64,000 bases of DNA from an uncultured Actinomycetota bacterium (GCA_963708885.1 CAVPUF010000003.1:1042303-1106302), one strand, 5' to 3'. Shown: positions 15,941-37,025, counted from the first letter of the stretch. Program-made: numbers and translations. The notes: a model not told the origin generated them from the sequence alone.

Positions 15941-15945
15941 AACAG

Positions 15946-15971: not shown

Positions 15972-15988
15972 TCCGAGAGGCACCGACG

Positions 15989-16033
15989 CACGACGAGTGA
16001 GCCCGCCCGGAACACCGGGCGGGCTTCGTCGTG
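15989..16033 (-). terminator. long GC-rich hairpin downstream of the DUF4235 gene
   Basis: CACGACGA-(GTG bulge)-AGCCCGCCCGG, loop AACA, CCGGGCGGGCT-TCGTCGTG. About 19 bp paired; lies 22 nt past the stop at 16055. Confidence 0.55.
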
Positions 16034-16054
16034 TCCGGGCGACGTGGCCCGGGA

Positions 16055-16342
16055 TCAGTCCTTCTGCAGCTGAGGGGGCAGGTGACCGGCCGACTTCTCG
16101 TAGTAGCCGGCGGCCCGGCGCTGGGCCAGCATCCGGGCCAGGGCGACGAAGGTGCCGCTCACGACCGCCCACGCGACGGCCTCGCCCATCTTCACGTCGG
16201 GGTCGGCGGGGTTCTCGGGCGGGTGCTTGCCGGTCGCGGCCTTCCAGCCCGCGTCCAGGGCCTTCTTGGCCACCGCCGCCGCGGCGAGCGCGGAGATGAG
16301 GGAGAAGACGGTCCACAGCCTGCTGGAGCCGGAGTCAGCCAT
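16055..16342 (-). CDS. DUF4235 domain protein
   Basis: 95-aa ORF MADSGSSRLWTVFSLISALAAAAVAKKALDAGWKAATGK.., two amphipathic/hydrophobic helices. Confidence 0.7.
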   Translation of the reverse strand: MADSGSSRLWTVFSLISALAAAAVAKKALDAGWKAATGKHPPENPADPDVKMGEAVAWAVVSGTFVALARMLAQRRAAGYYEKSAGHLPPQLQKD

Positions 16343-16351
16343 GCGGGCAGG

Positions 16352-16858
16352 TTACCGCGAGCCGCCGGTGCCTGAGATCACCCGGATGGCGGCGGCGAGG
16401 TGCTCGGGGTCGCGCGTGCTCAGCAGCCAGTACGGCGCGGGGTCGCGGTCGTCGCACACGGTCACCCGCACCGCGCGCTTGAGGTAGGGGCGGATCAGGA
16501 GGTAGGCCCGGGCATCGGCGTCGGGACCGGCCACGCGTCGCGTCGCCGCCGGGTCCAGCGGCTCGGCTCCGCCGAGGAACTCCCCGGGGATCCGGGCGCG
16601 GCCGGCCCGGAGCCAGCCGTCCTCCACCTCGACGCGAGGGGACCCGTAGCCGCGGAACAGGGCGACCATCGCCAGGACCAGGACAGCCGTGGCCGACCAC
16701 GCGACGACGGCCGGCGTCGCCACCACGAAGGCCAGCCAGAAGGTGGCGATCAGCATCGTCCCCTGCACCCACCACCGCAGCGGCACGCTGAGCCGCTCGT
16801 GATGGCCGACGGGCTGTCCCGCCCCGAGGTCGGCGCGGGGTTCGGAGGTGTCCGGCAC
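16352..16858 (-). CDS. DUF3093 domain protein (membrane)
   Basis: 168-aa ORF with two N-terminal TM helices, then [21 protein letters not shown]...AYLLIRPY. Confidence 0.7.
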
Positions 16859-16910
16859 AGGGCACAGCCAACCATCCGGCTCCGGGCCGGCTCGGGATAG
16901 GGTCCGGCAC

Positions 16911-17405
16911 GTGCCAGATCACGCCGCGGAGCCCGGCCTGCCGGTCGCCGTCGTCCGGCTCGACCGTGGCCTTCCCCTCCCGTCGTACGCCCACCCGGGC
17001 GACGCGGGGGCGGACCTGATGACGACCGTGGACCTGACCCTCGCTCCCGGCGAGCGGGCCCTCGTGCCGACCGGTGTCTCGATCGCGCTGCCCGAGGGGT
17101 ACGTCGCCCTGGTCCATCCGCGCTCGGGCCTCGCGGCTCGGCACGGCCTGTCGATCGTGAACACCCCGGGCACCATCGACGCGGGCTACCGCGGCGAGAT
17201 CAAGGTGCTGTTGGTCAACCACGACCGCACCCAGCCGGTCGAGCTCCGCCGCGGTGACCGGGTCGCCCAGCTCGTCGTGCAGCGGTTCGAGCGCGCGGTG
17301 TTCACGGAGGTGGACGCCCTGCCCGAGTCCGTCCGCGGCGCCGGGGGATACGGTTCAACGGGAGTCGAGAGTCCCGCAGAGGTCGAGAGCTGGGAGACGC
17401 ACTGA
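16911..17405 (+). CDS. dut: dUTP diphosphatase
   Basis: [42 protein letters not shown] motifs. GTG 16911 chosen as start. Confidence 0.9.
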
Positions 17406-18034
17406 TGTTCCGCCGGAGGTCGCGCGAGGAGCCGGACGAGCCCGAGGAGGCCGCCGTCCCCGAGGGCGAGGAGCCGGAGGCACCGGACCAGGGACCGTGG
17501 GACTCCGACGACGTCCCGGACGACGGGTACGACCGGGTCGACCTGGGATCGCTCCGAGTCGCTCCCATCGAGGGCGCCGAGCTGAGACTCCAGGTGGACG
17601 AGCAGACCGGTGAGGTCCAGTCCGTGATGCTCGCCGGCGAGGACGGCGGGATCGAGCTGCGCGCGTTCGCCGCGCCCCGCAACGGGGACCTCTGGGCCGA
17701 GGTGCGTCCCCAGATCGCCGCCGACGTGGCCCAGCACGGCGGCACCGCGACCGAGCGTGAGGGGCGCTGGGGCGTCGAGCTGGTGTGCCAGATGCAGGTC
17801 CTGATGCCCGACGGCACCCAGGCCATGCAGCCGTCCCGGATCGCGGGGGTCAACGGCCCGCGCTGGCTGCTCCGGGCCACCTTCCTGGGCCGGCCGGCCG
17901 TCGAGCCGGACGACGCCCAGGCCTGGGAGGACGCGCTCGCCGCGGTCGTCGTACACCGCGGGGGACATGCCATGCCCGTCGGCGACGCCCTGCCCCTGGT
18001 GCTGCCCGACGACGCCCAGCAGCTGCCGCAGTGA
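17405..18034 (+). CDS. DUF3710 domain protein
   Basis: 209-aa ORF. Acidic N-terminus, GPWDSDDVPDDGYDRVDLGSLRV, LRAFAAPRNGDLWAEVR. ATG overlaps the dut stop (TGATG). Confidence 0.75.
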   Translation: MFRRRSREEPDEPEEAAVPEGEEPEAPDQGPWDSDDVPDDGYDRVDLGSLRVAPIEGAELRLQVDEQTGEVQSVMLAGEDGGIELRAFAAPRNGDLWAEVRPQIAADVAQHGGTATEREGRWGVELVCQMQVLMPDGTQAMQPSRIAGVNGPRWLLRATFLGRPAVEPDDAQAWEDALAAVVVHRGGHAMPVGDALPLVLPDDAQQLPQ

Positions 18035-18110
18035 CCCGCGGCCCGTATTCCTGAGCACGTCACACCGGCCGGGGATACGGCACGGCGCCCTTCCGGCCTA
18101 GGCTGGAGAC

Positions 18111-18473
18111 ATGGGCGAGAAGAGCAAGCTGCGGCGATCCATCAGCAAGTGGGCCAACGCCGACGACATGCACGCCCGCGAGCTGCGCCAGACGACGCGT
18201 GCGGGGCAGTGCGACCTGATCGCCGACTGTGAGGACCGCAAGCCGGTCCGGCTGCGCGGCACGCTCAAGACCGTGACGCTCCGGCCGCGGGGCGGCGTGC
18301 CGGCCCTCGAGGCGGAGCTCTTCGACGGGTCCGACACCCTGGTCCTGGTCTGGCTCGGCCGTCGCGAGATCGCGGCGATCTCGCCGGGGCGCTCGCTGGA
18401 GGTGCAGGGCCGGATCGGTCGCCACGGCGGAGACCGGATCATCTACAACCCGCGCTACCAGCTTCTCCCATGA
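18111..18473 (+). CDS. OB-fold nucleic-acid-binding domain protein
   Basis: 120-aa ORF with VRLRGTLKTVTLRPRGGVPALEAELFDGSDTLVLVWLGRREI.. Conserved neighbour of DUF3710/DUF3159 genes. Confidence 0.7.
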   Translation: MGEKSKLRRSISKWANADDMHARELRQTTRAGQCDLIADCEDRKPVRLRGTLKTVTLRPRGGVPALEAELFDGSDTLVLVWLGRREIAAISPGRSLEVQGRIGRHGGDRIIYNPRYQLLP

Positions 18474-18522
18474 GCACCCGACGACGCTGCTCGCTCCGCT
18501 CGCACCGCCGCAGGGACCCCGC

Positions 18523-20562: not shown

Positions 20563-22614
20563 GTGGGTGTAAGCGACGTCTCCAAGCGGATCCTCCTGGG
20601 CCGGAAGCTCAGGAGCTCCCAGCTCGGGGAGACCCTGCTGCCCAAGCGGATCGCGCTCCCGGTCTTCGCCAGCGACGCCCTCTCCTCGGTGGCCTACGCC
20701 CCGGACGAGATCTTCATCATGCTGTCCCTGGCCGGCGCGTCCGCCTACGCCTACTCGTGGAAGATCGGCATCGCCGTCGCGATCGTGATGCTGACCGTGG
20801 TGGCGTCGTACCGGCAGAACGTCCACGCCTACCCCAGCGGCGGCGGCGACTACGAGGTGGCCACGGTCAACCTCGGCCAGACCGCGGGCGTCACCGTGGC
20901 CTCGGCCCTGCTCGTCGACTACGTGCTCACCGTGGCCGTGTCGGTGTCCTCCGGGGTGCAGAACGCCGGCTCGGCCATCCCCTGGGTCGCCGGCCACGCG
21001 GCGCTGGTGGCGGTCCTCCTCGTCGTGGTCCTGGCGGCGCTCAACCTCCGAGGCGTGCGCGAGTCGGGGGCGTTCTTCGCCCTGCCGACCTACGGCTTCA
21101 TGATCGGCGTCATCGGGATGGCGGTGCTGGGTGCCCTGCGGGCGGCCCACGGGACCCTGCCCAAGGTCGAGAGCGCGAACCTCACCATCATCCCGGCGCC
21201 GGGCTACTCGAACCTGACCGGCCTGGCGCTGGTCCTGCTCATCGCCCGGGCCTTCTCCTCGGGCAGCGCGGCGCTGACCGGTGTGGAGGCCATCTCGAAC
21301 GGCGTACCGGCCTTCCGCAAGCCCAAGAGCAAGAACGCCGCCACCACCCTGCTGCTCCTCGGCACGATCGCGATCACGATGCTGCTGAGCATCATCGTGC
21401 TCGCGAACAAGATGGGCCTGCGGTACGTCGACCCGGCGGACACCTCCCGGCTGCGCACCGCCTCGGGGCACCCCCTTCCGCCCGGGTACAACGAGCCCAC
21501 GGTCATGGCCCAGCTGTCCAAGGCGGTCTTCGACGTCTTCCCGCCGGGCTACTACTTCGTGCTGGCGATGACCGGGATCATCCTGATCCTGGCCGCGAAC
21601 ACGGCGTTCAACGGGTTCCCCGTCCTCGGCTCGATCCTGGCTCGCGACGGCTTCATGCCCCGGGCGCTCGGCTCGCGCGGCGACCGGCTCGCCTACAGCA
21701 ACGGGATCATCGTGCTGGCCGGCTTCGCGGTCGTGCTGATCTTCGCGTTCGACGCGCAGACGACGCGGCTCATCCAGCTCTACATCGTCGGCGTGTTCGT
21801 CTCGTTCAACCTCAGCCAGCTCGGGATGATCCGGCACTGGACGCGGCACCTGAAGACCGAGACCGACCCCGCCAAGCGGCGTCACATGATCCGCTCCCGG
21901 GTGATCAACACGTTCGGTCTCGGGATGACCGCCGTCGTCTTCGTGGTCATCCTGCTCACCAAGTTCCTCGCCGGCGCCTGGATCGCGATCCTGGCCATGT
22001 GCATCTTCTTCGCGATCATGAAGGGCATCCGCCGCCACTACGACAACGTGACGCGTGAGCTCGCGGCGGACGACGAGGACCGGATCCTGCCCACCAAGGT
22101 GCACGCGGTCGTGCTGGTGTCGAAGCTCCACAAGCCGACCCTCCGGGCCCTGGCCTACGCCAAGGCGACCCGGCCCAACGTGCTCGAGGCGGTCTACGTC
22201 GGCTCGGACGACAAGACGACCCAGGCGCTGGTCCGCGAGTGGGACGAGCGCAACCTCGGGGTCCCGCTCAAGGTGCTGTACTCGCCCTTCCGGGAGATCG
22301 TCCGGCCGATCATCGACTACGCCAGCCAGATCCGGCAGGCCAACCCACGCGGCGTGGTCGCGGTCTACATCCCCGAGTACGTCGTGGGCCGCTGGTGGGA
22401 GCAGCTCCTCCACAACCAGACGGCGCTGCGGCTCAAGGGGCGGTTGCTCTTCACCCCCGGCGTGATGGTGACCTCGGTGCCCTACCAGCTGCACTCCTCG
22501 CAGATCGCCAAGGCCCGCGAGGAGCGCGAGAGCACGCGGGTCAAGGCCGGCGACCTGCGACGCGGCACCGTCGGGCGCAGCCAGGAACCCGGCCGACGGC
22601 AAGTGCCTCGGTGA
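20563..22614 (+). CDS. APC-family permease with large C-terminal cytoplasmic domain
   Basis: 683-aa ORF. 12 TM segments (ALPVFASDALSSVAYAPDEI) then a soluble roughly 200-aa tail. Conserved next to trkA genes in actinobacteria. Confidence 0.85.
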   Translation: MGVSDVSKRILLGRKLRSSQLGETLLPKRIALPVFASDALSSVAYAPDEIFIMLSLAGASAYAYSWKIGIAVAIVMLTVVASYRQNVHAYPSGGGDYEVATVNLGQTAGVTVASALLVDYVLTVAVSVSSGVQNAGSAIPWVAGHAALVAVLLVVVLAALNLRGVRESGAFFALPTYGFMIGVIGMAVLGALRAAHGTLPKVESANLTIIPAPGYSNLTGLALVLLIARAFSSGSAALTGVEAISNGVPAFRKPKSKNAATTLLLLGTIAITMLLSIIVLANKMGLRYVDPADTSRLRTASGHPLPPGYNEPTVMAQLSKAVFDVFPPGYYFVLAMTGIILILAANTAFNGFPVLGSILARDGFMPRALGSRGDRLAYSNGIIVLAGFAVVLIFAFDAQTTRLIQLYIVGVFVSFNLSQLGMIRHWTRHLKTETDPAKRRHMIRSRVINTFGLGMTAVVFVVILLTKFLAGAWIAILAMCIFFAIMKGIRRHYDNVTRELAADDEDRILPTKVHAVVLVSKLHKPTLRALAYAKATRPNVLEAVYVGSDDKTTQALVREWDERNLGVPLKVLYSPFREIVRPIIDYASQIRQANPRGVVAVYIPEYVVGRWWEQLLHNQTALRLKGRLLFTPGVMVTSVPYQLHSSQIAKAREERESTRVKAGDLRRGTVGRSQEPGRRQVPR

Positions 22615-23771
22615 GCCCGGGACGCAAGGCGTCGTCGCGCCCGCAGTCCGGTCAGCCGCGGCCGAGGGCCGCGCGCGGAGCGTCCCGCGTGGGCGAGCGG
22701 TTCGAGGCGGAGGTCGGCCCCGTCGCTCACGGCGGCCACTGCGTCGTACGCCGCCCCTCGACGGCGGAGCCAGGTCGTGACCGGGTGGTCTTCGTCCGTC
22801 ATGCCCTTCCCGGGGAGCGCGTCGTGGTCGAGGTCACGGAGGGCACCGACGGCGACGCCTTCTGGCGCGGCGACGCCGTGTCCGTCCTGACGCCCTCGCC
22901 CGACCGGGTCGAGGCGCCGTGCCCCTACGCCGTCCCCGGCGGCTGCGGCGGCTGCGACTTCCAGCACGTCGCGCCCGCGGCACAGCGCGAGCTCAAGGCC
23001 GCGGTGGTCGCCGAGCAGCTGTCGCGTCTGGCCGGGATCCAGCGTGAGGTCGAGGTCGAGGCCGTGCCGCCGACGGTGAGGTGGCGCTCCCGGATGCGCT
23101 ACGTCGCGCTGCCGGCGGGCCGCCGCGGGCTCCATGCGCACCGCTCCGACGAGGTCGTCGAGATCGAGGACTGCCTGATCGACGCCGGGACCGGCGACCG
23201 CTCCCGGGAGACCGTGGCCACGTCGTACGGCAGCCGCAGGTTCTCGGTCGATCCGGACGGCTTCTGGCAGTCGCACGTGGACGCGCCGCGGGTGCTGGTC
23301 GAGGCCGTCCTGCGGATGGTCCGGCCGTTGCCGGGGGAGCGGGTGATGGATCTCTACGCCGGCGTCGGGCTGTTCGCCGCGTTCCTGGCCGATGCGGTCG
23401 GGCCGACCGGCCGGGTCGTCGCGGTCGAGGGCTCGCGCGTCGCCTGCGAGCACGCGCACGCGAACCTGCCCGTGGACGTCCGCGTCGAGCACGGACCGGT
23501 CGAGCGCGTCCTGGCCTCCTCGTACGACGAGCCGTTCGACATCGTCGTCCTGGACCCGCCGCGCGAAGGGGCTCGCCGAGGAGTCGTCCAGCAGATCGCG
23601 GCCCGTGCTCCGCGCGCGGTGGCCTACGTCGCCTGCGATCCCGCGGCGCTCGCGCGCGACGTGGCGACGTTCGCCGAGCACGGGTACGCCCTCGGCGAGC
23701 TGCGGGCGTTCGACCTGTTCCCGATGACGCACCACGTGGAGTGCGTTGCTTTGCTGGAAAGGGGCTGCTGA
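22611..23771 (+). CDS. class I SAM-dependent RNA (uracil-5) methyltransferase, TrmA/RumA family
   Basis: TRAM-like N-terminus, Cys cluster CPYAVPGGCGGCDFQH, SAM motif DLYAGVGLF, DPPREGA, C-terminal DLFPMTHHVECVALLERGC*. GTG start overlaps the permease stop. The last ~25 nt use AT-ending codons (see island finding). Confidence 0.85.
   Translation: MSPGRKASSRPQSGQPRPRAARGASRVGERFEAEVGPVAHGGHCVVRRPSTAEPGRDRVVFVRHALPGERVVVEVTEGTDGDAFWRGDAVSVLTPSPDRVEAPCPYAVPGGCGGCDFQHVAPAAQRELKAAVVAEQLSRLAGIQREVEVEAVPPTVRWRSRMRYVALPAGRRGLHAHRSDEVVEIEDCLIDAGTGDRSRETVATSYGSRRFSVDPDGFWQSHVDAPRVLVEAVLRMVRPLPGERVMDLYAGVGLFAAFLADAVGPTGRVVAVEGSRVACEHAHANLPVDVRVEHGPVERVLASSYDEPFDIVVLDPPREGARRGVVQQIAARAPRAVAYVACDPAALARDVATFAEHGYALGELRAFDLFPMTHHVECVALLERGC
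23718..23749 (+). repeat. left copy of 32-bp direct repeat (putative attL core)
   Basis: TTCCCGATGACGCACCACGTGGAGTGCGTTGC; 30/32 identical to 33749-33780, same orientation. Confidence 0.85.
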
Positions 23772-24214
23772 CCTTCGGAAGAGCAGCGGCGATGCGCGTC
23801 GCGCCGGTGATCGAAAGCGCGCTTTGGGCTCAGATTGGATCCGTGACACAGCGGCCGACAGCGCCGGCAGTGCGCGTCCCTCACGCGGGACCAGATGTCG
23901 TAGTTCTGACTGCGCATGCGGCCTGAACCTGCGGGAACCTTCTAGATCTGAGTTCCTGGGCCGCGGTCGGGGCGCACGGGACTGACAGGGGATACAAAGT
24001 CTCGCGACGCGCTATCACCGCCGCGCAGCCGGCTGCCTCCCGGCTGTTCTTGCGCCGGACCGACGCCTGACTCGAAGAGGCTTCAACCTGACCGGCGACG
24101 ATGGTGGGACTGAACGACACTCTGGCTCCTCGGGTGGATCCGGGAGGGATTCGTGTGCGCAGGTGGTCACTGCAGGCGGAGTGGGTGCACTCTGTGAGCC
24201 AGGACTGGCGTGCA

Positions 24215-25528
24215 ATGGGAGGCGTCGTGCACGAAACCGGCACTCGCGACTACCTCAAGGGGGCGCTCTGGGTCATGCCGGCGGGCGCGGTTGTCATCGC
24301 GCTGCTGGCAGGATCCCTGTTGAGCATGGTCGACATCGGCCCGGACGCGCCGATCTCTCCGCTGTTGTTCCAAGGCACAGCGGACGACGCGAGAACGCTC
24401 CTGATCGGCATCTCCGGGACGATGATGACGGTGATCGCCCTGGTGCTGGGACTCACGCTGGTTGCGCTCCAACTGGCCTCGACCCAGTTCTCGCCGCGCC
24501 TCCTGCGGTTTTTCCTGCGTGACCGGGTCAACCAGATCACCTTGAGCGTGTTCGTTGCCACCTTCGTCTACGCCACGGCGGGGCTCTATACCGTCGGCGT
24601 CAGCCATGGGGAGCGCGTCGACAGCTACCCGCGCCTGGCGGTGACCCTCGCGCTGGTGCTGATGTTCGCGAGCCTCGTGGTACTGGTGTACTTCGTGCAC
24701 CACATCTCGCACTCGATCCAGATCGACGAGATCATGCGAGGCGTCGAACACACCACCCTGTTCGTGATCGAGCACGAACTCCCGACCCACGGCGTGGACG
24801 TCCAGCCCATGCCCGAGACGCCGGTGTGGGCGGTGACCGTCGCGGCGTACGCCTCGGGATATGTACAGACCCTGCGGCCAGAAGTGCTGCTCCAGGAGGC
24901 GCTCCGCATGGGCGTCACGTGTGCTGTGATTCCCATGGTCGGCGAGCACGTGATCGAGGGACAGCCACTGGTCCGGGTGTGGCGAACCTCGCCCGAACAG
25001 TCCCCTCCTGTTCCTGAGGAGTACCTCCACGCCGTACGCGCGACGGTTCGAATCGGTTACGAGCGCACCAACGAGCAGGACGTCGCCTTCGGCATCCGAC
25101 AGCTCGCCGACATCGCTGTGAAGGCGTTGTCTCCGGCGGTCAACGACCCCTACACAGGGATGCAGGCGCTGGAACACATCTCGGTGGTTCTGGCGGCTTT
25201 GGCTCCCCGACCGCTGGGCGACCAGGTGCTCAGCGATCCCGACGGCCGGCCGCGAGTGGTGGTGCCGGGACGCGACTTCGCCTACTACGTCGATCTGGCT
25301 ACCGGCCAGATCCGCCGCTACGGCACTAGTGAACCGCGTGTACTCGGTTCGCTACTCCGCGTGCTGAACCGGCTCGGTCCGTTCTGCCGCGACGACCAGC
25401 GGCGCCGCACTCTGGCAAGAACGGCGGCACTCGTCGCCGATGCGGCTGAGCACGGCATCGTTCAGGAGGGCGACCGCCAAGGGGTCACCGACGAGGCACG
25501 TTCGGTCCAGGCGCGGCTTTCTGGCTGA
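24215..25528 (+). CDS. DUF2254 domain membrane protein
   Basis: N-terminal TM helices (LKGALWVMPAGAVVIALLAGSLL; LIGISGTMMTVIALVLGLTLVALQLASTQFSPRLL) then a soluble domain. ORF opens at 24101; ATG 24215 is the likelier start. Confidence 0.7.
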   Translation: MGGVVHETGTRDYLKGALWVMPAGAVVIALLAGSLLSMVDIGPDAPISPLLFQGTADDARTLLIGISGTMMTVIALVLGLTLVALQLASTQFSPRLLRFFLRDRVNQITLSVFVATFVYATAGLYTVGVSHGERVDSYPRLAVTLALVLMFASLVVLVYFVHHISHSIQIDEIMRGVEHTTLFVIEHELPTHGVDVQPMPETPVWAVTVAAYASGYVQTLRPEVLLQEALRMGVTCAVIPMVGEHVIEGQPLVRVWRTSPEQSPPVPEEYLHAVRATVRIGYERTNEQDVAFGIRQLADIAVKALSPAVNDPYTGMQALEHISVVLAALAPRPLGDQVLSDPDGRPRVVVPGRDFAYYVDLATGQIRRYGTSEPRVLGSLLRVLNRLGPFCRDDQRRRTLARTAALVADAAEHGIVQEGDRQGVTDEARSVQARLSG

Positions 25529-25839
25529 CCAGTGCGCGGCTGCCAGCCCTGCGGTGGGGCGACGGCTTTCGCTCCTTGCGATTGAGATCCCTTGGGCGGG
25601 ATCCCCGGGCACGTGCGTGGCGCACCAATTCCCCGATTGTTCGGTGAAGAGGTCGCCGTCGAGGTCAAGGCGGAGCACGTGCCGAGCGACCCCGCCGCGG
25701 TGTTTGTGCAGGTCAGCGCACCTTTCGCAACGAGGAGAGATCTGCTGCGGCGCTTGTTGATGAACAAAGGGGCGCAGTCCAAATCCTGTCAGCCCGACTG
25801 ATGTCAGCCTTGCCGAGCGGCGAGCCGACCCCGTGTGGC

Positions 25840-26283
25840 TCACGTAGCCGCCTCGAGCAACAGCTTGAGGCGCGCCAGGTCCTTCTGGGTAGCCCGACGC
25901 ATCGCCAACGCGAGCATCGGGGCGGTCAGCCGCGAGAAGCCCGACGGGTTGCCTCGGTTGCGCAGCGTCATTCGCGTGGCATGGCCTCCTACGGGCTCAA
26001 ACGTGTAGGTGGTCTCCATCGGGAAGGGGCCGTCGGTTGTGCGCATCACCAGCCTCCTGTAGGGCAGGAGTTCGACGATCTCGTACGTGTAGGCGAGGCG
26101 CCGGCCGAGGAACTGGGCAACGAAGTCCATACGCGACCCCACCCGGATTGTGGGCTGGGTCCGCCAGGCGACAGACCGGATGTTGGCGTACCACTGCGGC
26201 GCATTCGCCGGGTCGCCGGCAAAGTCCGCTACCACCTCGACAGGTCGGTCGATGGTGGTCTCGACCAGCACGTCGACGCTCAC
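25840..26283 (-). CDS. SRPBCC (polyketide cyclase/START-like) family protein
   Basis: VSVDVLVETTIDRPVEVVADFAGDPANAPQWYANI... is a typical SRPBCC N-terminus. The upstream 30 codons of the ORF are Arg-rich junk. Confidence 0.7.
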   Translation of the reverse strand: MSVDVLVETTIDRPVEVVADFAGDPANAPQWYANIRSVAWRTQPTIRVGSRMDFVAQFLGRRLAYTYEIVELLPYRRLVMRTTDGPFPMETTYTFEPVGGHATRMTLRNRGNPSGFSRLTAPMLALAMRRATQKDLARLKLLLEAAT

Positions 26284-26406
26284 GGTGTCATCTTCGCGCC
26301 TGACCTGAAGGCCGGCCAGTCGTCGACGATTCGCGTGAGGTGGGGTTGGCGATCGGCGCCACAACCCCGGCAAGGTTTGTGGGTGTGCCGTTTTGGGGTG
26401 GGCCGT

Positions 26407-27213
26407 TCACCGCGGGACGTCATCGGCTGGAGAGCCTGATGCGGCGGCAGCTCGCTCACCGGCTGTCAGGGTCACGGCGTCGCTCACGCTCATCGACCCG
26501 GTCAGTGTCACCTTGCACCAGACCCCGAACTTCGCGTCGTGGTGACGCGCGAGGGTACGGAAAACGTCGGGGTCGGGCCGCATTCCCGGCTGCTCGCGGG
26601 TCACCATGGTGCACCTGATGCAACCCTCGGTGGGCGCGAGCACAGCCGAACCCGTGTGCAGGGATTGCCCCACCCATGCGTCCTCCACCCAGTCGTCTCC
26701 CGTGGTGTCGACCAGAACGTTGGGGCGGAACCTCCGCGGCTCCCAGCTCCCGGCCGGGTAGAGCTTCGCCGCTGTGCGCAGCGACGCGGTGGTCAGGACG
26801 AGCAGGGCTGCGGCATCGACGTACCTGTGCTCGGGCATCGTCCACTCGATGGCCCGGCTGTTGTCGTCGGTCGCGTCTGCGAAGTACTCCGCCTTGCCGG
26901 GCGCTGCCGAGACCGCGGAGACCAACGACACCGGGCCCTCCAACCACTCGGAGAGCAGGCGGTCGGTCGTCGGCCCGGGTCCTTCGGCCGTACGCCCGTC
27001 GGGCAGGGTGATCACCGGCTGTGCGTCGTGGTAGGACGCGGTGGCATGCAGCAGTACCGGTCGCCGGCGCGCGGTCAGGATCCGGCCGGTGCGTTCGTCG
27101 CGGATGCCCCACCGCCGGTCACCCTCGAGGCCATCCCGCTCGACGACGGTGGTGTCGAGTCGTTCGCCTTGCAGCGACTTCACCGGATAGCGCCAGATCC
27201 CGACGATCTTCAT
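26407..27213 (-). CDS. MOSC domain protein
   Basis: MKIVGIWRYPVKSLQGERL (MOSC_N beta-barrel) and C-terminal EGCIRCTMVT (conserved MOSC cysteine). Confidence 0.8.
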   Translation of the reverse strand: MKIVGIWRYPVKSLQGERLDTTVVERDGLEGDRRWGIRDERTGRILTARRRPVLLHATASYHDAQPVITLPDGRTAEGPGPTTDRLLSEWLEGPVSLVSAVSAAPGKAEYFADATDDNSRAIEWTMPEHRYVDAAALLVLTTASLRTAAKLYPAGSWEPRRFRPNVLVDTTGDDWVEDAWVGQSLHTGSAVLAPTEGCIRCTMVTREQPGMRPDPDVFRTLARHHDAKFGVWCKVTLTGSMSVSDAVTLTAGERAAAASGSPADDVPR

Positions 27214-27360
27214 GTCACCCCTCCACCCGACCCGCTCGGTCACAGCGTGCAGTCCGTAGACGTGCCCTGTCGACCCGAAGGCGTGACGTGCGACGTCACG
27301 ACGTGATGTCCCAGGTCACGCCTCGGTCGGTGACACCACCACACTCACCGAGGAGGAGAA

Positions 27361-27765
27361 ATGCCGAGCGCATCACGAGCGACGACTCCTGTCGCCATGG
27401 ACCTGGAGATGATCGAGGGCCGCTACGCCGAGCTGCACGACCAGACCGTCGGGTTCGAGACCTTCAAGCAGGACCTCGACGCGGCGCCGTACTTCCGCGG
27501 TCTGCCCGGCGACGTCTGCTCGTGCGAGCACCACGGATACGTCACCGCCGGCCAGATCACGTTCCGCTGGCCCGACCCGGACGCCGTCGACGGCGTGCGG
27601 GAGGAGACCTATGTCGAGGGCGACTCGTACGTCGCGGGCCCCGGGCACACGCCGGTGTTCACGGCCGGATCTTCGGTCGTCGAGTTCACCCGGACGGCCG
27701 ACCTCGGCCCGGTCATGGAGGTCGTCGGCCGCAACGTCGCGACGATGCTCGGGACGTCGTCGTGA
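27361..27765 (+). CDS. small cupin-like protein (hypothetical)
   Basis: 134-aa ORF with good coding character (MDLEMIEGRYAELHDQTVGFETFKQD...HHGYVTAGQITFRW...GDSYVAGPGHTPVFTAGSSVVEF). Cupin assignment is from memory only. ATG 27397 is an alternative start. Confidence 0.55.
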   Translation: MPSASRATTPVAMDLEMIEGRYAELHDQTVGFETFKQDLDAAPYFRGLPGDVCSCEHHGYVTAGQITFRWPDPDAVDGVREETYVEGDSYVAGPGHTPVFTAGSSVVEFTRTADLGPVMEVVGRNVATMLGTSS

Positions 27766-28193
27766 CCTCGGCACTCGTCCGGGGCGACCGACTCCAGGGG
27801 GAGGAGGCCCGACTGGCTCGGACCCTCGTCCGCTGGCTCGAGACCGGTGATCGTCCGGAGGACCTCTTCGCCGAGGACGTGTTCGTCGACGTGAGCCTGC
27901 CGCAGTGGCGGCTGCAGAGCGAGGGGGCCGCCGAGGCGTTCGACCTGCGGGCGGGAAGCCATCCACATCCGGGTGACGTCGCGGTTCGCGGCCTGGATCG
28001 CACCTCTCGCGGGTTCCTCATCGAGTTCGACGAGCGATGGCTGACCGAGGGTCAGGAGTGGTACTGCCGGGAGATGATCCACTGCCAGGTCGCGGGCGAC
28101 CGGATCGCGACGATGTGTGTGTATTGCACAGGCGACTGGGACGAGGCCGCCCAACGGCGGCACGCCGAGCAGGTGCACCTGACCCGGCCGTGA
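27762..28193 (+). CDS. NTF2/SnoaL-like fold protein (hypothetical)
   Basis: 143-aa in-frame segment from a GTG overlapping the previous stop (GTGA): LARTLVRWLETGDRPEDLFAEDVFVDVSLPQWRLQSEG...WYCREMIHCQVAGDRIATMCVYCTGDWD. Confidence 0.55.
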   Translation: MTSALVRGDRLQGEEARLARTLVRWLETGDRPEDLFAEDVFVDVSLPQWRLQSEGAAEAFDLRAGSHPHPGDVAVRGLDRTSRGFLIEFDERWLTEGQEWYCREMIHCQVAGDRIATMCVYCTGDWDEAAQRRHAEQVHLTRP

Positions 28194-28208
28194 CCCTAGC
28201 CTGGCGCC

Positions 28209-29997
28209 GTGGCGACATCGGCGACCTCGGCAAGATCCCTGCTGGGCCGGGCCGAGGTCGCCTGGTCGGCCGGCGACGCGGAGGCGGCCGCCACAGCTCT
28301 TCGAGAGCGCGGTCGTGGCGGCGGAGCAGGAGGGCGACCTCGAGACCCGTGTCGCGGCCGTGCTCGGCCTGTCTCGCGGCCAGCGCTACAACCTCACGCC
28401 CGGCAGGCTGCCGGTGCATCTGCACGCGGCGTACGAGGCCGTGTCCGATCCCGGCGTCCGGGCCCGGCTGGCCGCAGCGCTGGCCCGTTGCTGGGCGTAT
28501 GCGAACGAGCCCCGCCGGGCCACACCGTTCGCCGCCGAGGCCCTGGACCTGGCGGAGGCCAGCGGTGACCAGACCGTGATCGCCGATGCCCTCGACGCCG
28601 CGCTGGCCTCGCGCTGGGGTCCCGACGACCTGCGCTCCCGGCGGGAGTGGGCAGTACGACTGGACGACGTCTCGGCGCACCTGCGCGACCCCGAGTCGCG
28701 GCTGCAAGCGGCCCTGTGGGGTCTGAGCGTCGCGTGGGAGGTGCTCGACCTACCGCGCATGCACAAGTCCATGCGAGCGCTGGAGCTGGTGGCCGAGGAA
28801 TCGCCGCGGGGGCGCTTCTTCGCGGCCACCAGACGGCTCCCGTTGGAGCTCCTGCGGGGAAACAACGACGTGGCGACCCTCCTCATCGAGCAAGCCCAGG
28901 CTGCAGCGACTGCCGCTCCGATCCCCGACGCGTTGGGCGTGCTGTGGAGCATGCAGGGGTACGCGGCGTTCTTCACTGGCGACGCCGAGGGGTGTGCCTC
29001 GGTCGCGGCGCTGTTCGAGGAGTACTCCGCCGAGCACGGTGTGGCTGCCGTCCGCGCGGAGGCCGCACTCCTCTGGCTCGGCGCGGCACGACTGGACAAG
29101 TCGGCCGAGGTGATCGGCGCCTTCAGTCCCGAGGTGCTCCACGACCTTCCTCGGGACAGCGACTGGATGCTGATCCAACAGTGCGTTGCCGAGGCGGCGA
29201 TCGCTCTCGGCGACCGAGAGATCGCCGAGAGCGTCGTCGATCACCTCATGCCCTACGCAGGCCGCTCGGTGGTCAATGCCGGAGCGGTGATGTGGCACGG
29301 CGTCACCGACGACACCCTGGGCCGCGCTCTCGAGCTCCTGGGGCGAGCCGACCAGGCCGACCGACATCTGTCCGCGGCGTTGGAGACCTACGAGCGGATC
29401 GGCGCACGATGGTGGCGCGACCGCCTGCGGATGCACGCGACCCCGAGCGTCAGAGCAGCTGACCCCGCCTCGTCTCGAGTCGTCCACTTCCATCCGCAAC
29501 CCGGTGGGCTGTGGCTGGTCGGCACGGCCGGATCCACGTCCGTGCTGCCACGGCTGCGCGGCCTCGAGCACCTGCACGTCCTGCTGAGCAACCCGGACAC
29601 CGACATCGCCGCGCTCGACCTGGCCGGCGGCGGAATCGCGGTGGAGCAGCCCGGGATAGAGGTCCTCGACAACACGGCACGACGCGTCTACACCTCTCGG
29701 GTTGCCGCCATCGACCGCGAACTCGAGCTGACTGACGACCCAGAACTCCACGAGGAGCGGGTAGCACTGCTCGAGCAGCTCGGCCGTGCCACCGGGCTCG
29801 CCGGCCGCGAACGTCGTACCGGCGGCAACAGCGAGCGCGCCCGCGTGGCCGTCCGCAAGGCAATCATCAGCGCGTTGGCCCGCGTTGCCGAACAAGACCC
29901 GCGGCTGGCCCGCCACCTCCACGAACGAGCCCGGACCGGCCATCAATGCCGCTACATGTCGGACCCCGACCACCCGATAACGTGGATCCTCGGTTGA
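28209..29997 (+). pseudogene. TPR-like helical-repeat regulator with conserved C-terminal ERAR...TG..C.Y module; one +1 shift near 28292 (or intact from GTG 28315)
   Basis: Frame 0 VATSATSARSLLGRAEVAWSAGDAEAAA joins frame 1 QLFESAVVAAEQEGDLETRVAAVLGLS as one helical-repeat sentence. C-terminus reads GLWLVGTAGSTSVLPRLRGLEHLHVLLSNPDTDIAALDL...GNSERARVAVRKAIISALARVAEQDPRLARHLHERARTGHQCRY. Confidence 0.6.
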
Positions 29998-30288
29998 GCC
30001 GGTCCGGGCGGAATGAGGCACCTCGTTGGTGTACAACGGCGGCGCGTTTCGTTCTGGCGGGCGTGGCCGTCGGCGCGGGTGGTGAGAACGCCTGTGTGCC
30101 AGGCTATCGACGCCCGGGCCAACCTGATGGCGGGCCATCTGCTCATCGGCCGCGGCGCCGATCTGGACACGCAACCACGGCTGGCAGTGGACGCCGTTTC
30201 GCCACAGAGCGCTGCCACGGGGCGGGACGCAGCCTTCTGATCTGCGTTGCGTACGTAGGGGTCCGTCGATGCGTGGGGTGAATGCCCC

Positions 30289-31005
30289 ATGGCGTCGTTA
30301 GTGAGTCCGAAGCATGGTCGTGGCATGACACGAGTTACGTTCATGAGGCGAATCGCCCAGGCCACCGTCGCTGCGCAGATCTTGTTCGTCCTGGGGTTCG
30401 TGGCGGTGGGGGCCGCTGAGGGTCACGGGTACCAGTGGATGCGGGACGACATCAGCGACCTCGGTGCGCTGACCGCGCACCACGCGACGGTGTGGCGGTT
30501 ACTTCTGCTCGTCACCGGCGCGGTGACGATGGTGTTCGGTCTGCTGGTGGTCGGGCCGGTGTTCGGCTCGCCGGTGGCCGGGGTGCTGGTGGCGCTCTCG
30601 CTGCCGGCCTTCGACAACTTCACGGACGCCTTCTTCCGTCTCGACTGTCGGGCTGCCGATCCCGGGTGCACCGCGTCGCAGGCCATCTCGTCGTGGCACG
30701 GGACTGCCCACATCGTGTGTTTCGCCGTTGCGGCGTTGGCCACCGTGATTGCCCCCTTTGTCCTTGCCCGGGCGATGCGCCGCGAGGAGAGGTGGCGTTC
30801 CCGGGCGCGATCGGTCCAGTGGTTCGGCTTCCTCACCGTGGTCCTGCTGGTCGTCACGGGCGTGGCGAGCGGATCTCCGGTGCAGGGGCTCGCCCAGCGC
30901 GTGGCCGCGACCGTGATCCCGCTCGGACTGGCCGCCTTGGCCTGGCTCGTGGCAGAGCAGGAGCGCCCGGTCACGCGGGTGGCCGATCTGGTCAGGGGCA
31001 AGTAG
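30289..31005 (+). CDS. DUF998 domain membrane protein
   Basis: 238-aa polytopic ORF (ISDLGAL...; six hydrophobic segments). Starts at 30325 or 30343 are also possible. Confidence 0.65.
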   Translation: MASLVSPKHGRGMTRVTFMRRIAQATVAAQILFVLGFVAVGAAEGHGYQWMRDDISDLGALTAHHATVWRLLLLVTGAVTMVFGLLVVGPVFGSPVAGVLVALSLPAFDNFTDAFFRLDCRAADPGCTASQAISSWHGTAHIVCFAVAALATVIAPFVLARAMRREERWRSRARSVQWFGFLTVVLLVVTGVASGSPVQGLAQRVAATVIPLGLAALAWLVAEQERPVTRVADLVRGK

Positions 31006-31007
31006 TC

Positions 31008-31703
31008 ATGCGCCGCGCCCGCATGGTGGTCTACGGCGCCGGAATGGTCGGAAGCCCGCTGCTGCTCATCGCCTACTGGGTGCTCTACCCGGCCTACGGC
31101 GACCTGAGCTCCGCGGACATCGTCTCCGACATCGGGGCGGCGCCCGGCCGTACGACGGTGGCCGACGTGTTCGCGGTCACGGCCGTCTTCTTGACGGTCC
31201 CAGCCTCGTTGGCCTACCTCCGCGCACTCGAAGCGACCGCCCCTCGGCTGAGCCGCATCGGCGCGACGCTCTCTGTGGTGGGCTGGATGGCGGTCCTGCC
31301 CCTCGTCGTCATGGACGTCGTCGCGCGTGAGCTGGCGGCCGAGCCGAAGGTGTTCGGCGCGATCCTCACGAGCGGGCCGGTCGTCGCGCTTTCGGCGGTG
31401 GCCACCGTGCACGTGCTGGGCGGGCTGCTCATCGGCGTGGCTCTGGTCCGCACCCGACTCGTGGCGCGGCCGCTCGCACTGGCGGCAACCGTCGCGCCGG
31501 TGGCACATCTGGCCTCCAACCTCGCCGGTGTGCTGTGGGTGGACGTCGCGTCCTGGCTGGTGGCCGCCGCGACCGGGGTCGCCGTGCTACCCGGGCTCGC
31601 CCGGCTCGTAGCTGCCGACGAGTCCGTGACGCGTCGCGAACAACGTGGCCGCGGCCCGGGTGCCGACACCGATCTTGGCGTAGACGTTCTCGACATGACG
31701 TGA
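31008..31703 (+). CDS. polytopic membrane protein (hypothetical)
   Basis: [30 protein letters not shown]... about six TM segments, ATG 3 nt after the DUF998 stop. The last 117 nt overlap the convergent LuxR gene and may not all be translated. Confidence 0.55.
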
Positions 31704-33218
31704 CACGGTCTTCGGGCTCAGGTCCAGGCGGCGTGCGATCTCCTTGTTGACCAGCCCTCGCGCGAGCAGTGCGAGGACCTCGACCTCGCGGTCGGTGAGG
31801 CCGCTGGGACCCTTGCGCCGCGCAAGCCGCCGATGGCCCGCCGCCTCCAGCACGGCGTTTGCGGCAACCTGGTCGAGGCGGCCCGCGCGTACCTCGCCGC
31901 GAAGCTCCTCGGCGGCGTCAGCGGGTGGGCGTGCGGGTCGGTGCGGCCGCGGCTCGGTCATCGCGTGGTAGACGTCCGCGGCGGCGAGGATGCGGTCGGC
32001 CGGGGTCAGCGCGGACGCCGTGAGACCGGCCGGGTAGCCCGACCCGTCGAGCCGCTCGTGGTGCCGCGCCGCGATCGTCCGGCACCCCTCGAGCGACGGG
32101 ATCCTGGCCAGCATCCGGTCGGTGAGGAACGGGTGCAGGTGGGCGCGCTCACGCTCGAGCGCGGTCAGCGGACCGGGCTTGTCCCACACCGTGTTGGCCA
32201 CACCCAGACGCCCGATGTCGTGCACCAGGCCCGCATGGCGCAACCTGAGACACTCCGCGTCGGCCAGCCCCGCGCGGCGACCAGCCTCCGCGGCGAGCCC
32301 GGCGACCCCCCGCGAATGCCCAGCGAAGTACGGCGACTTCAGGTCCGCCAGGTCTGCCATCGCCTGCAGGACGTCGTCGAGCTCCGCACCCGACACGGTC
32401 CGCGCCGGCGGCCGCTCGGCGGCCAGCACGCCCTCCCACGACGCCGAGTCGTCGAGGTCGGCCAGAAGGCCGTCCAGGTTGCCCAGGAGCGCGGAGGTCA
32501 GGTGTGGGTCGTAGAGCGAGCCCGCATGGCGACCGATCACCGCCCGCAACGAGTCCAGGTCGTGCTGACGGGCCAGCACCTCGACCGGTCCTGCCAGCTG
32601 GACGAGCCGGGCCGCGAGGCTGATCTCCTCCCCGGACCGCCGCCCGGGCACACCCTTGCCGTCCCACTGCTCGTAGCCCTCCGCAGCAGCAGCGGAGACG
32701 GCCGCACCCAGCCCGAGGCGCTCCGCGAGCTGGGAGCCCAGGTCCACGTGCGTGGCGAACCACGACTCCATCGTGCTCTTGCCGACCACCGGAAAGACCG
32801 CCAGCCGGCGCGCGCGCCCCGTGGGCGGACCGTGCGACCAGAGCCGTCGCAGAATGAACGCCGCAACCGCCGGGCCGCTCATGGCGAGCATCCGGAAGCC
32901 TTCCGCCTTCATCTCGATGTCGTCCCCGAACCACGCGGCCTGCTCGGCCGCGTCAGCATGGCAGTAGACGTTCAACAACAGCCCGACGTAGTACGTCGCC
33001 TCACGCTCCGACGCGTCGGCACCCGCCAGATCGCCCAGACGCAGCGCGATCACGGTTCGCCGCAGGCAGTGCTCCAGCGGCTGACCCAGACTGAGATCCG
33101 CGCCATACGACATCGCCGCGACCAGCTCGGCCAACCTGACTCTCGGAGAGCCATCAAACTCCACCCGTCCAGTGTTCCGCCGGGCGTCCCCGCCCGCCAG
33201 CACTCCGACCGGACCCAT
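31587..33218 (-). CDS. tandem HD-GYP-type (one degenerate, one canonical) phosphohydrolase domains fused to a LuxR-type HTH
   Basis: Canonical HD ([10 protein letters not shown]) and [14 protein letters not shown]. Upstream degenerate copy [24 protein letters not shown] without HD. C-terminal [47 protein letters not shown] 33218 chosen; the ORF is open to 33515. Confidence 0.75.
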
Positions 33219-33748
33219 CGACACAGCGTCGAAAGGGTCGAGTCCCCAAACGCGCGGCGCGCGACGATCTCGACGCAGGCGTGGCAACGCGCCGCCGTCC
33301 CATCGGCTCGTTCGACCCGCGTCCTCATGGGCGAGAAGGGCTACGGTCGGACAAGCCCTGGCACCCCCATCTTGGGCATACCGACGGGCGGGGCGCGCTG
33401 GCCCTCCTTGCCTTACCGGGTCTCCGAGTGGGTGAGCATTCTGAGCGCGTCGGAGTTGACCTGCTTCACCCAGACGTGACCTGAGTTCGAGCTCGCAGTA
33501 CCACTGCAAAGCCATAGATCGGCTCGAACTGGTTCGCCGCTGAAGGCGCTCTTTGCGGTCGGCTGCGACCCTCGTAGCCGGCTCCTGGGAGGGGGCGCTT
33601 GGGGCGCGCTTTGAATCGCGGCGGGTCGCAGACAGGTACTGACGCTTCAGGGCGTCGAGGGCCGCAAACCCGCAGGTCAGCGGCCGGTTCTTCGATTGAG
33701 CGCAGCTTTCGGCAAAGAAGCGCCGTCACGCTCAACACCGTCGGCGCC

Positions 33749-33804
33749 TTCCCGGTGACGCACCACGTGGAGTGCGTGGCGTCCTGGAGCGCACCCGCGG
33801 CTGA
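33749..33804 (+). pseudogene. displaced native 3' end of the RNA methyltransferase gene (right direct repeat plus remnant)
   Basis: TTCCCGGTGACGCACCACGTGGAGTGCGTGGC, then G-TCCTGGAGCGCACCCGCGGCTGA. With one base restored this reads FPVTHHVECVALLERTRG*, parallel to FPMTHHVECVALLERGC* at 23718-23771 but with GC-rich codons. Confidence 0.7.
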
Positions 33805-33850: not shown

Positions 33851-34201
33851 ATGCCGTGCGACATCCCCGACGCGCGCGAGCTGGTCGGACAGCTCGACGC
33901 GGTCTCGGTGACCGAGCTCGACCGCTACACGAAGCTCGAGGTCGAGGGCCGGACCTTCGGCTACCTCTGGGAGCCCACCTGCACGATCGGGCTGAAGCAG
34001 ACGATCGCCGAGCAGAGGGCGTTGGTGGCCGAGCGGCCGGAGGTGTTCGAGGTGCAGTTCACGGCCTACGGCTTCGGCTGGGTGGTCGTGCACCTCGAGG
34101 GCGTCGAGCGTGACGAGCTGGCCGAGCTGGTCTTCGAGGCCTGGCGGCTCTCGGCCCCGGCCGGGCTCCGCGCGTCTCGGGGCGAACGCCTGCCGGTGTG
34201 A
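33851..34201 (+). CDS. MmcQ/YjbR-like family protein
   Basis: 116-aa ORF: GRTFGYLWEP...IGLKQT...FGWVVVHLEGVERDELAELVFEAWRLSAP. Pattern recalled for the YjbR (DUF419) family. Confidence 0.55.
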   Translation: MPCDIPDARELVGQLDAVSVTELDRYTKLEVEGRTFGYLWEPTCTIGLKQTIAEQRALVAERPEVFEVQFTAYGFGWVVVHLEGVERDELAELVFEAWRLSAPAGLRASRGERLPV

Positions 34202-34235
34202 CCGCCGCGTTGATCGCTCACCTTGACGTCATGTA

Positions 34236-34249
34236 TCTTGATATCAAGA
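34236..34249. promoter_or_regulatory. perfect 14-bp AT-rich palindrome upstream of aconitase (candidate operator)
   Basis: TCTTGATATCAAGA, about 70-80 nt upstream of the acn start, inside the only AT-rich stretch of this intergenic region. Confidence 0.4.
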
Positions 34250-34319
34250 GATCTACCCAGCTACCGGACGCCCGGCGCGCGACGGCAAGATGGGCGGGAG
34301 ACGTTGACTTCACGAGGAG

Positions 34320-37025
<2,706 letters not shown>

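Follow-up and report, generated by a model that had tools for sequence, protein, structure and literature searches.

An att-flanked island at the 3' end of an RNA methyltransferase gene is very probably the decayed remnant of an integrative element

How did about 10 kb of DNA without any integrase come to stand between an RNA methyltransferase gene and that gene's own native 3' end? The question is raised by one locus in a stretch of 64,000 nucleotides from an uncultured Actinomycetota bacterium (GCA_963708885.1 CAVPUF010000003.1:1042303-1106302), the whole of which was analysed and is called the window below. The original prediction was that an element carrying its own version of the 3' end of the gene had entered by site-specific recombination, rebuilt the gene with this foreign end and displaced its native end rightwards by 10 kb; the match to the closest relative, the pattern of mismatches between the repeats and the empty sites of other genomes, all described below, bear this out. 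We conclude that the segment 23747-33777 is very probably what decay has left of an integrative and most likely conjugative element inserted at the 3' end of the methyltransferase gene by a tyrosine recombinase. The sites and sequences from which this reading is built are the following, in window coordinates:

22656-23771, plus strand: methyltransferase gene of the RlmD/RumA family of RNA (uracil-C5) methyltransferases, with TRAM and U5-MTase domains; the start codon is approximate
23718-23749, plus strand: attL direct repeat, TTCCCGATGACGCACCACGTGGAGTGCGTTGC, with the exact core at 23725-23746; the palindrome of the core, described below, lies within the codons for FPMTHHVECV
23747-23778, plus strand: gene end supplied by the element (P' side), GTTGCTTTGCTGGAAAGGGGCTGCTGA plus CTGACCTTCGG (23768-23778)
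23772-24100, no strand: left arm (P' arm), non-coding, with the candidate arm-type site CGCGCTTTGGGCTCAGATTG at 23818-23837 and a unit of about 120 nt at about 23900-24010
33219-33748, no strand: right arm (P arm), non-coding, with a second candidate arm-type site, GGCGCTTGGGGCGCGCTTTG, at 33594-33613 and CCGCAGGTCAG at 33670-33680
33749-33780, plus strand: attR direct repeat, TTCCCGGTGACGCACCACGTGGAGTGCGTGGC, with the exact core at 33756-33777
33778-33804, plus strand: native gene end of the methyltransferase (B' side), displaced and shortened by a 1-nt deletion; TGA at 33802-33804 is its former stop
33851-37025, plus strand: native right flank, a small YjbR-like open reading frame (ORF) at 33851-34201 followed by the aconitase gene acn at 34320-37025

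The two repeat copies lie in the same orientation, are identical at 30 of 32 positions and bracket 10,031 bp, at the places and with the identity that had been predicted. Their 22-nt exact core, TGACGCACCACGTGGAGTGCGT, starts at 23725 and at 33756 and has no third site in the 64 kb at up to three mismatches; zero matches were obtained in 100 dinucleotide-preserving shuffles, that is, 0.00 expected by chance. The methyltransferase protein matches TRAM and tRNA_U5-meth_tr in Pfam and scores 177.7 bits against TIGR00479 rumA of NCBIfam, just below the cut-off of 183.55. On the left, its reading frame closes at 23771 with gtt gct ttg ctg gaa agg ggc tgc tga, that is VALLERGC before the stop, and this continuation of the left copy, GTTGCTTTGCTGGAAAGGGGCTGCTGA, is written in codons that are rare for a genome whose GC content at third codon positions (GC3) is about 0.91. 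To the right of attR the DNA reads gtg gcg tcc tgg agc gca ccc gcg gct gat, in which restoring one C gives VALLERTRG with its stop at 33802-33804. Both gene ends are those that had been read at first.

The origin of each end was judged from a comparison set of 80 methyltransferase loci with up to 10 kb of flank, extended by later additions to 89 loci (referred to by L numbers). The window comes from a Nocardioidaceae-like actinobacterium: with one genome per species, the best matches of its methyltransferase are two metagenome-assembled genomes (MAGs) of uncultured Actinomycetota, at 82% and 77% amino acid identity, and the next best are Nocardioides and Marmoricola. In the closest relative, L001, whose methyltransferase is 82% identical in amino acids across residues 1-369, the uninterrupted gene ends with GTGGCGCTGCTCGAGCGGTCCGGCGGCTGATCGG (VALLERSGG before the stop). 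The right copy in the window, GTGGCG-TCCTGGAGCGCACCCGCGGCTGATCCGG, equals this end less one base, and the match extends past the stop; the right copy carries the native gene end, and the end of the gene before the insertion would have read ...GTGGCGCTCCTGGAGCGCACCCGCGGCTGA. The present methyltransferase gene is a hybrid, native until the core and derived from the element for its last eight or so codons.

The two mismatches between the repeat copies follow the same geometry. At repeat position 7 the native base is A, in an ATG codon for a methionine that is conserved in essentially all loci, and A is found in the left copy and G in the right copy. At position 30 the native base, taken from L001, is G; the left copy has T and the right copy G. 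Such a distribution, A and T on the left and G and G on the right, is what one expects if attL is built as B-O-P' and attR as P-O-B', with the crossover inside the 22-nt core. The core itself holds an imperfect palindrome, ACGCAC (23727-23732) and GTGCGT (23741-23746) on either side of the 8-nt spacer CACGTGGA. Tyrosine-recombinase core sites usually have this layout, here with an inverted repeat of 6 nt and a spacer of 8 nt. The palindrome is nonetheless a lead rather than evidence, since it was read straight from the sequence and the folding energy of the core DNA is indistinguishable from that of shuffles.

Other genomes provide the empty site. The ancestral order methyltransferase, YjbR-like gene, acn, which the original prediction expected of an empty site, is present in L001, L028, L033 and L042, all of them other species: about 0.5-0.6 kb separates the methyltransferase from the YjbR-like gene in L001, and the YjbR-like ORF starts some 10-25 nt after the methyltransferase in the three others, with acn next. 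With 23747-33777 cut out, the window would have precisely that arrangement. Among the 80 loci, methyltransferase and acn lie anywhere from 0.1 kb to more than 10 kb apart, and it is this wide variation that marks the junction as a variable spot. The name YjbR-like is that of the original prediction, and the ORF at 33851-34201 has no match in NCBIfam.

The composition of the island was also expected to differ from its flanks, and it does. GC content is 0.693 in the island and 0.718 in the rest of the window, the left and right arms being AT-richer still, as had been noticed (0.669 and 0.670). Mean GC3 is 0.855 for nine island genes and 0.914 for 28 genes elsewhere (Mann-Whitney p=0.0014), and the tetranucleotide distance to the whole window peaks in the 10-kb stretch from 24001. 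The deviation is real yet modest, as expected of DNA coming from another high-GC actinobacterium. Site-specific integration is supported by the match of the native end, the pattern of mismatches, the empty sites and this composition.

The foreign end of the gene has relatives. A recurrent methyltransferase end, ...LL[TE]K[TS]G[SP]DLR before the stop (...GGCTCTGACCTGCGGTGA, typically KTGSDLR), is found in more than 15 Nocardioidaceae loci and accompanies an acn gene that is distant or out of range. In L010, which has three copies of the gene end, the first two carry the KTGSDLR-type end and the third, beside the native flank, ends with LLEK and the stop, which indicates that the KTGSDLR-type end is borne by the element. 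In the loci with an intact integrase (L019, L085 and L087-L089) the methyltransferase ends with LLTK[TS].[SP]DL[RH] and the stop. The left end in the window (GTTGCTTTG...; GTTGCTTTGCT...GGCTGCTGACCTTCGG) looks like a variant of this KTGSDLR-type end; the gene end reads GTTGCTTTGCTCGTTCAAACCGGCTCTGACCTGCGGTGA in L002 and GTTGCTTTGCTGGAAAGGGGCTGCTGACCTTCGG in the window, where an indel appears to have brought the TGA within CTGACC into frame and to have produced a frame-shifted variant of the GGCTCTGACCTGCGGTGA end. Taken with the 1-nt deletion in the stranded native end, this frameshift-like end suggests that the insertion is not very recent.

Beyond the gene end, the arms of the island also belong to a family. 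A motif with the family consensus C.C.CTTTGGGC.C.CTTTG stands about 100 nt from the start of the repeat in the window and in the family, where it is found at this same offset in L004, L012, L016, L019, L024, L029, L037, L085 and L087-L089. In the 64 kb it has only two matches at up to three mismatches, one per arm. The right arm aligns with sequence upstream of attR or of middle att sites in L037, L035 and L010, with the shared blocks TGCGGTCG.CTGCGACC, GGGC.CGCTTTGA.TCGC, GCAGGTCAG and CACGCTCA, and is homologous to positions 11596-11761 of L002. One of these blocks, GCAGGTCAG, is the reverse complement of the P' motif CTGACCTGC, and CCGCAGGTCAG (33670-33680) is the reverse complement of the P' motif CTGACCTGCGG. 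Motifs and alignments thus assign the two arms of the island to a single attP family. Profile searches of the arms returned no Pfam or Rfam match on the left and no Pfam match on the right, where Rfam gave only a sub-threshold Pxr match (18.9 bits against a gathering score of 80 bits) at 33713-33802, across the junction of arm and attR.

Two sets of observations touch these arms and gene ends. In L002 (11048-12050), the methyltransferase, which ends with VALLVQTGSDLR and the stop, is followed by roughly 1 kb, most of it apparently arm sequence. The unit of about 120 nt seen once in the left arm of the window (23900-24010) occurs twice there and in no other of the 89 loci, a 170-nt stretch is 71-78% identical to the right arm of the window (33330-33494), and a possible decayed middle att (…GAGCGTCGAGTGCGTAGC…) lies near 12020-12045. 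This stretch of L002 may be the remnant of an almost cargo-less element. In nine Streptomyces loci (L049, L058, L060, L064, L066, L070 and L078-L080), the methyltransferase ends ...C TGA CCTGCGG, about 60 nt past TTCCCGATGAC; the CTGACCTGCGG of these gene ends is the same motif as in the element-borne end of the Nocardioidaceae, in another reading frame. The element may have captured its mimic of the gene end from a Streptomyces-like host, or the CTGACCTGCGG motif may have a function of its own.

An integrase is found at this position in four relatives, L019, L029, L085 and L089. In L019 (Nocardioides nanhaiensis), an ORF of 417 amino acids on the opposite strand ends about 250 nt past the start of the repeat, beside attL, and matches Phage_integrase (PF00589) with E = 8.5e-13. 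The integrase of intact members has 413-417 residues and lies about 180-250 bp past the methyltransferase stop; the copy of L029, 82% identical, is cut by the contig end, and fragments of 63 residues each in L004 and L024 and of 22 residues in L017 were also recovered. A protein search with the integrase returned about 50 clusters of 408-414 residues at 79-93% identity, plus many truncated forms, in Nocardioides, Marmoricola, Dermatophilaceae and Aeromicrobium. Among these taxa, methyltransferases share roughly 60% identity, and an integrase that is so much tighter than its neighbour fits a mobile gene.

The element family still looks active in related Nocardioidaceae, and the surroundings of its integrase point to a conjugative element. 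Its contexts in L085 (N. hungaricus), L086 and L089 (a Marmoricola MAG) share one module, in the order TraG/VirD4-type coupling protein (587 residues), SSB, three small or unassigned genes, an excisionase-like HTH_17 gene and the integrase. The integrase gene runs convergently to that of the TRAM/U5 methyltransferase in L085 and L089, the contig of L086 ends about 240 nt past the integrase, and on the short contigs L087 and L088 the integrase lies beside a 3' fragment of the methyltransferase gene. The methyltransferases of L085, L087, L088 and L089 combine the LLTK..DL[RH] end with the P' motif. Read over about 10 kb of each element, the integrase family looks like that of an integrative and conjugative element (ICE) of the type IV secretion system (T4SS) type.

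None of these genes is found in the window island. Searches with Pfam, NCBIfam and PHROG profiles detected no integrase, relaxase, coupling protein or VirB4/T4SS gene in it, and profile searches of the island and arm ORFs, Pfam included, gave no recombinase, transposase or relaxase domain, in agreement with the original prediction. Pfam detected no integrase pseudogene in four arm ORFs, and comparing the arms by blastx with 500 ORFs located downstream of the methyltransferase in the 80 loci gave nothing.

Several other classes of element were considered for the window island and set aside. A tRNA gene as target was rejected, the window having none. The only PHROG matches, one of unknown function to the DUF2254 gene and others of a generic helix-turn-helix (HTH) kind, do not describe a prophage remnant. 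Pfam shows no TraB/FtsK-like translocase, Rep or integrase domain in the window, as an actinomycete integrative and conjugative element (AICE) of the FtsK/TraB type would have. A composite transposon or insertion sequence (IS) does not fit either, there being no transposase and the boundary being a 32-nt direct repeat derived from the gene; no terminal inverted repeats stood out in the repeat analysis of the window. Nor is the island an ICE in itself, none of the ICE genes being present.

Elements of this kind recur at the same site. A search with a peptide of the methyltransferase C-terminus, with a reach of 10 kb that selects for small decayed elements, found more than one copy of the gene end in six loci, three copies in all in L010 and two each in L025, L035, L037, L072 and L080. 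The islets between these duplicated ends, tandem in L010, lack an obvious integrase, selected ORFs of L035, L072 and L080 having been checked with Pfam; tandem arrays at the methyltransferase site are seen in L010, L035 and L025. The integrase fragments and the integrase-less islets found there in other genomes indicate that decay is routine at this site. The island had been called atypical for having no recombinase and a protein-coding target. This view did not hold, as the same site is used by a tyrosine-integrase family, the arms are homologous and decay is routine there, and as integrase-less remnants flanked by att sites and targets at the 3' ends of protein genes are documented (PMC5704250, PMC9513070, PMC4701971).

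The individual islets differ in what they carry. L010 is a clear case of accretion: its gene-end copies at 11042, about 14369 and 18457 bound two tandem islands without obvious integrase (11042-18500), one with a LuxR regulator, a methyltransferase and an FAD monooxygenase, the second with a lipoprotein and a two-component system. In the Streptomyces loci L072 (11267-16900) and L080 (11258-17800), a second C-terminal copy (FPMTSHVECVAILEP) lies 5.5 and 6.4 kb downstream, and the left copies look like typical Streptomyces gene ends. The first interval contains a Type ISP restriction-modification enzyme, the second a DUF234 ATPase, a regulator and an SDR, with no integrase in either. A 2.8-kb islet between duplicated methyltransferase ends codes for a fusion of an ERCC4 nuclease to an Lsr2 DNA-binding domain, a protein nearly identical in two MAGs (L035:11213-13649 and L037:12696-13691); an excisionase-like HTH_17 is confirmed in the islet of L035, and an HTH-like sequence just after attL in L037 was recognized from the DNA alignment only. 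The islands of the Nocardioides loci L012 (12515-13792) and L017 (11553-12830) contain transposase genes of the IS256 family (mutator type), a family called by eye from the translations, and these transposases may contribute to the decay of the elements.

How, then, would the island have formed? In the reading that we prefer, recombination would have taken place inside the 22-nt TGACGCACCACGTGGAGTGCGT, which codes for the conserved C-terminal motif (P)MTHHVECV, and the attP site of the element would have carried a mimic of the last ten or so codons, so that the gene stayed intact at attL. The native end would have been stranded at attR and have lost one base since. An integrase, presumably the island's own, an excisionase and transfer genes would later have been deleted, leaving attL, attR, the arms and about ten accessory genes. 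Such a remnant would be immobile alone and could in principle be excised or co-mobilized given a cognate integrase, for instance after accretion of an incoming ICE. With attL and attR kept and the integration and transfer genes gone, the island is in a state equivalent to that of a cis-mobilizable element (CIME).

Several points weigh against this decay scenario. The family integrase has left no trace in the window by tblastn with the L019 integrase as query at E<10, and the cargo genes are unconnected to any intact ICE examined. The arms of the window have diverged from the family consensus, with 16/20 and 10/11 positions kept at two P' motifs, and for the P arm the comparison covered integrase-less islands alone. 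In the roughly 10 kb of each intact element, the coupling protein is the sole T4SS gene identified, with no relaxase or VirB4 identified. Finally, the empty-site comparison relies on other species, the closest having only 82% identity in the methyltransferase.

The conserved motifs of both arms, the lack of a detectable integrase pseudogene, the small integrase-less islets and tandem arrays at the same site elsewhere, and the 1 kb or so of seemingly mostly arm-like sequence in L002 would equally suit the main rival, a variant of the same biology: a non-autonomous cargo cassette that never had an integrase of its own and was moved in trans, like a satellite, by the integrase of a co-resident ICE. 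We consider it unlikely, as the pieces of integrase found at that position in L004, L024 and L017 testify to decay by deletion in the family, the 10-kb reach of the search favours finding small decayed elements, and the cargo sets are unrelated between islets, as independent decay predicts.

The similarity between the copies reaches weakly past the 32 nt on both sides (downstream in the codons for LLER), and one could suppose that there is no att pair at all, the right fragment being the remnant of a paralogous methyltransferase or the product of homologous or illegitimate recombination with DNA bearing a methyltransferase 3' end. This is highly improbable: the frame upstream of the right copy is unlike a methyltransferase (AVTLNTVGA against LGELRAFDL), so that the paralogue remnant named in the original prediction as a possible refutation was looked for without success; the part downstream of the right copy fits the native end of L001 and no paralogue; the mismatches are those of a reciprocal crossover; and both arms are homologous to those of the integrase-bearing family. 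That another recombinase made the insertion, a transposase or a serine integrase of the sort used by streptococcal ICEs as well as IMEs (integrative and mobilizable elements) targeting rumA (PMC4701971, PMC5704250), also has very little probability in our view. The window contains no recombinase of any kind to decide the matter directly; yet a long identical core with an inverted repeat, conserved arms with multiple motifs and restoration of the gene, not its disruption, are typical of a tyrosine integrase, the foreign end and the arms match those found beside PF00589 integrases, and the IS256-type transposases of L012 and L017 are unassociated with the repeat. The decayed integrative element thus stays by far our preferred reading.

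The cargo of this presumed remnant consists of about ten ordinary actinobacterial accessory genes, encoded as follows:

24101-25528, plus strand: DUF2254 membrane protein (Pfam E=7.9e-107)
25840-26373, minus strand: SRPBCC, polyketide-cyclase-like protein (Pfam Polyketide_cyc2, E=7.7e-17)
26407-27243, minus strand: MOSC-domain protein (Pfam MOSC and MOSC_N)
27361-29997, plus strand: three-gene unit for proteins of 134, about 147 and 560 residues (ORFs 27361-27765, about 27750-28193, and 28315-29997)
30289-31005, plus strand: DUF998 membrane protein (Pfam E=1.2e-18)
about 30990-31703, plus strand: second hydrophobic ORF, from the GC3 frame plot
31587-33218, minus strand: HD-GYP-type phosphohydrolase fused to a LuxR/GerE HTH (Pfam HD_5, E=1.1e-41, and GerE, E=3.1e-18)

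Of the labels first given to these genes, DUF2254, SRPBCC, MOSC, DUF998 and HD-GYP/LuxR are confirmed by Pfam, and 'cupin-like', 'SnoaL-like' and 'TPR-like' are unconfirmed: the three ORFs of the unit and the second hydrophobic ORF have no match in Pfam, NCBIfam or PHROG. The trio was found by tblastn on a metagenome contig, L081, with 61%, 44% and 47% identity for the proteins of 134, 147 and 560 residues and in an order inverted relative to the window. On that contig (431-4500) it adjoins a DUF2254 gene divergently; in the window (24101-29997) it is inverted with respect to DUF2254 and 2 kb away from it, with the SRPBCC and MOSC genes between. This arrangement suggests that DUF2254 and the trio may form a conserved functional module, rearranged inside the island. 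Homologues of the DUF2254 protein at 63-84% identity are widespread in unrelated, ordinary chromosomal contexts, and the contexts inspected for the close ones showed no methyltransferase or integrase alongside; the protein of the window itself has no record in the contig index. The origin of the cargo is therefore uninformative about the integrase.

On the other side of the methyltransferase, the gene block had been described as dut-trkA-methyltransferase, a description that probably fails for the gene next upstream. Directly 5' of the methyltransferase lies a gene for 683 residues (20563-22614), and the gene at the same position in L085 (681 residues) and L089 (676 residues) is annotated AA_permease_2; by its position and this annotation, the upstream gene probably encodes an amino-acid permease of the APC family, and not trkA. 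TrkA_N genes stand one step beyond the permease in L085 and L089, on the opposite strand. Around the junction itself, L001 has a small ORF at 11100-11700 (MGMVPPGNPNSAGFAGGYSPG...) with a hydrophobic C-terminal half, which is not in the window, L028, L033 or L042. Short tandem repeats lie right behind the methyltransferase stop in L014 (CGGCGCTGACGGT, four copies, 11165-11220) and in L051 (GTGAGTTTTTGTCGG, two copies, 11190-11225).

Elements flanked by att sites in the 3' ends of protein genes with the reading frame restored, their accretion at hot spots and their decay are standard for ICEs, IMEs and prophages (PMC4701971, PMC5704250, PMC9513070). The window island resembles CIMEs, as defined for ICE and IME remnants of streptococci (PMC5704250), in that attL and attR flank it at a protein gene's 3' end and in the tandem accretion seen in its relatives. 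It differs from them in its host, a Nocardioidaceae actinobacterium, in its target gene and integrase family, and in that its origin by decay is deduced from the homology of the arms. The pattern seen across our loci is also that of the decayed AICEs (DAICEs) and the integration hot spots of Streptomyces (PMC9513070); those are, however, FtsK/TraB-type AICEs, mostly in tRNA genes with one in rlmN, whereas the intact relatives described here carry a TraG/VirD4-type coupling protein and SSB and use an rlmD/rumA-like target. The intact members are similar to actinobacterial T4SS-type ICEs (Ghinet et al. 2011, PMC3218068) in their tyrosine integrase, Xis-like HTH, SSB and VirD4/TraG, all of which are missing from the window island. 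That survey lists 17 T4SS-type ICEs in Actinobacteria and places 100 of 144 AICEs in tRNA genes; Nocardioides is unmentioned in it, and where the word 'methyltransferase' is used the subject is not integration sites (PMC3218068).

Streptococcal ICEs and IMEs in rumA target the same family of 23S rRNA uracil-C5 methyltransferase genes (PMC4701971, PMC5704250). They do so with serine integrases at an internal site, with repeats of 2-21 bp and with the gene altered or disrupted; here the integrase of the relatives is of the tyrosine type, insertion is at the extreme 3' end and the reading frame is restored. A closer streptococcal rumA parallel, with a tyrosine integrase and a 3'-end site, was considered and rejected, since the paper gives serine integrases at an internal site; the parallel is limited to the target gene family. 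In the open-access literature searched, neither this att site nor this integrase family was found, which is not proof that they are undescribed. Judged from that literature alone, this tight family of integrases, linked as it is to an ICE-like element that bears a coupling protein, appears to be undescribed.

What looked like an oddity very probably becomes a textbook product of decay, with its missing partner named, and the finding of the island leaves current concepts unchanged. The results help to annotate genomic islands in actinobacteria, and the set of attB, attP and integrase could be tested as a genetic tool. In Nocardioidaceae, and probably in Streptomyces, the catalytic C-terminal motif of an RlmD/RumA-like methyltransferase emerges as a conserved integration site. 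Many genomes carry islets without integrase, or tandem arrays, at this site, and in some of them there are defence genes, for instance the Type ISP restriction enzyme. A further idea, which we put forward tentatively and rate as possible rather than probable, is that a so far undescribed, highly conserved family of T4SS-type ICEs, whose integrase is 79-93% identical between genera, makes the 3' end of this methyltransferase gene, at the codons for FPMTHHVECV, a hot spot in actinobacteria generally, where cargo cassettes without integrase are deposited, stacked and re-mobilized. The island of the window, its two sets of arm sites intact, would then be a working cassette, mobilizable in cis or in trans, rather than dead DNA. 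If this is true, the site would act somewhat like a slow, ICE-driven gene-cassette array.

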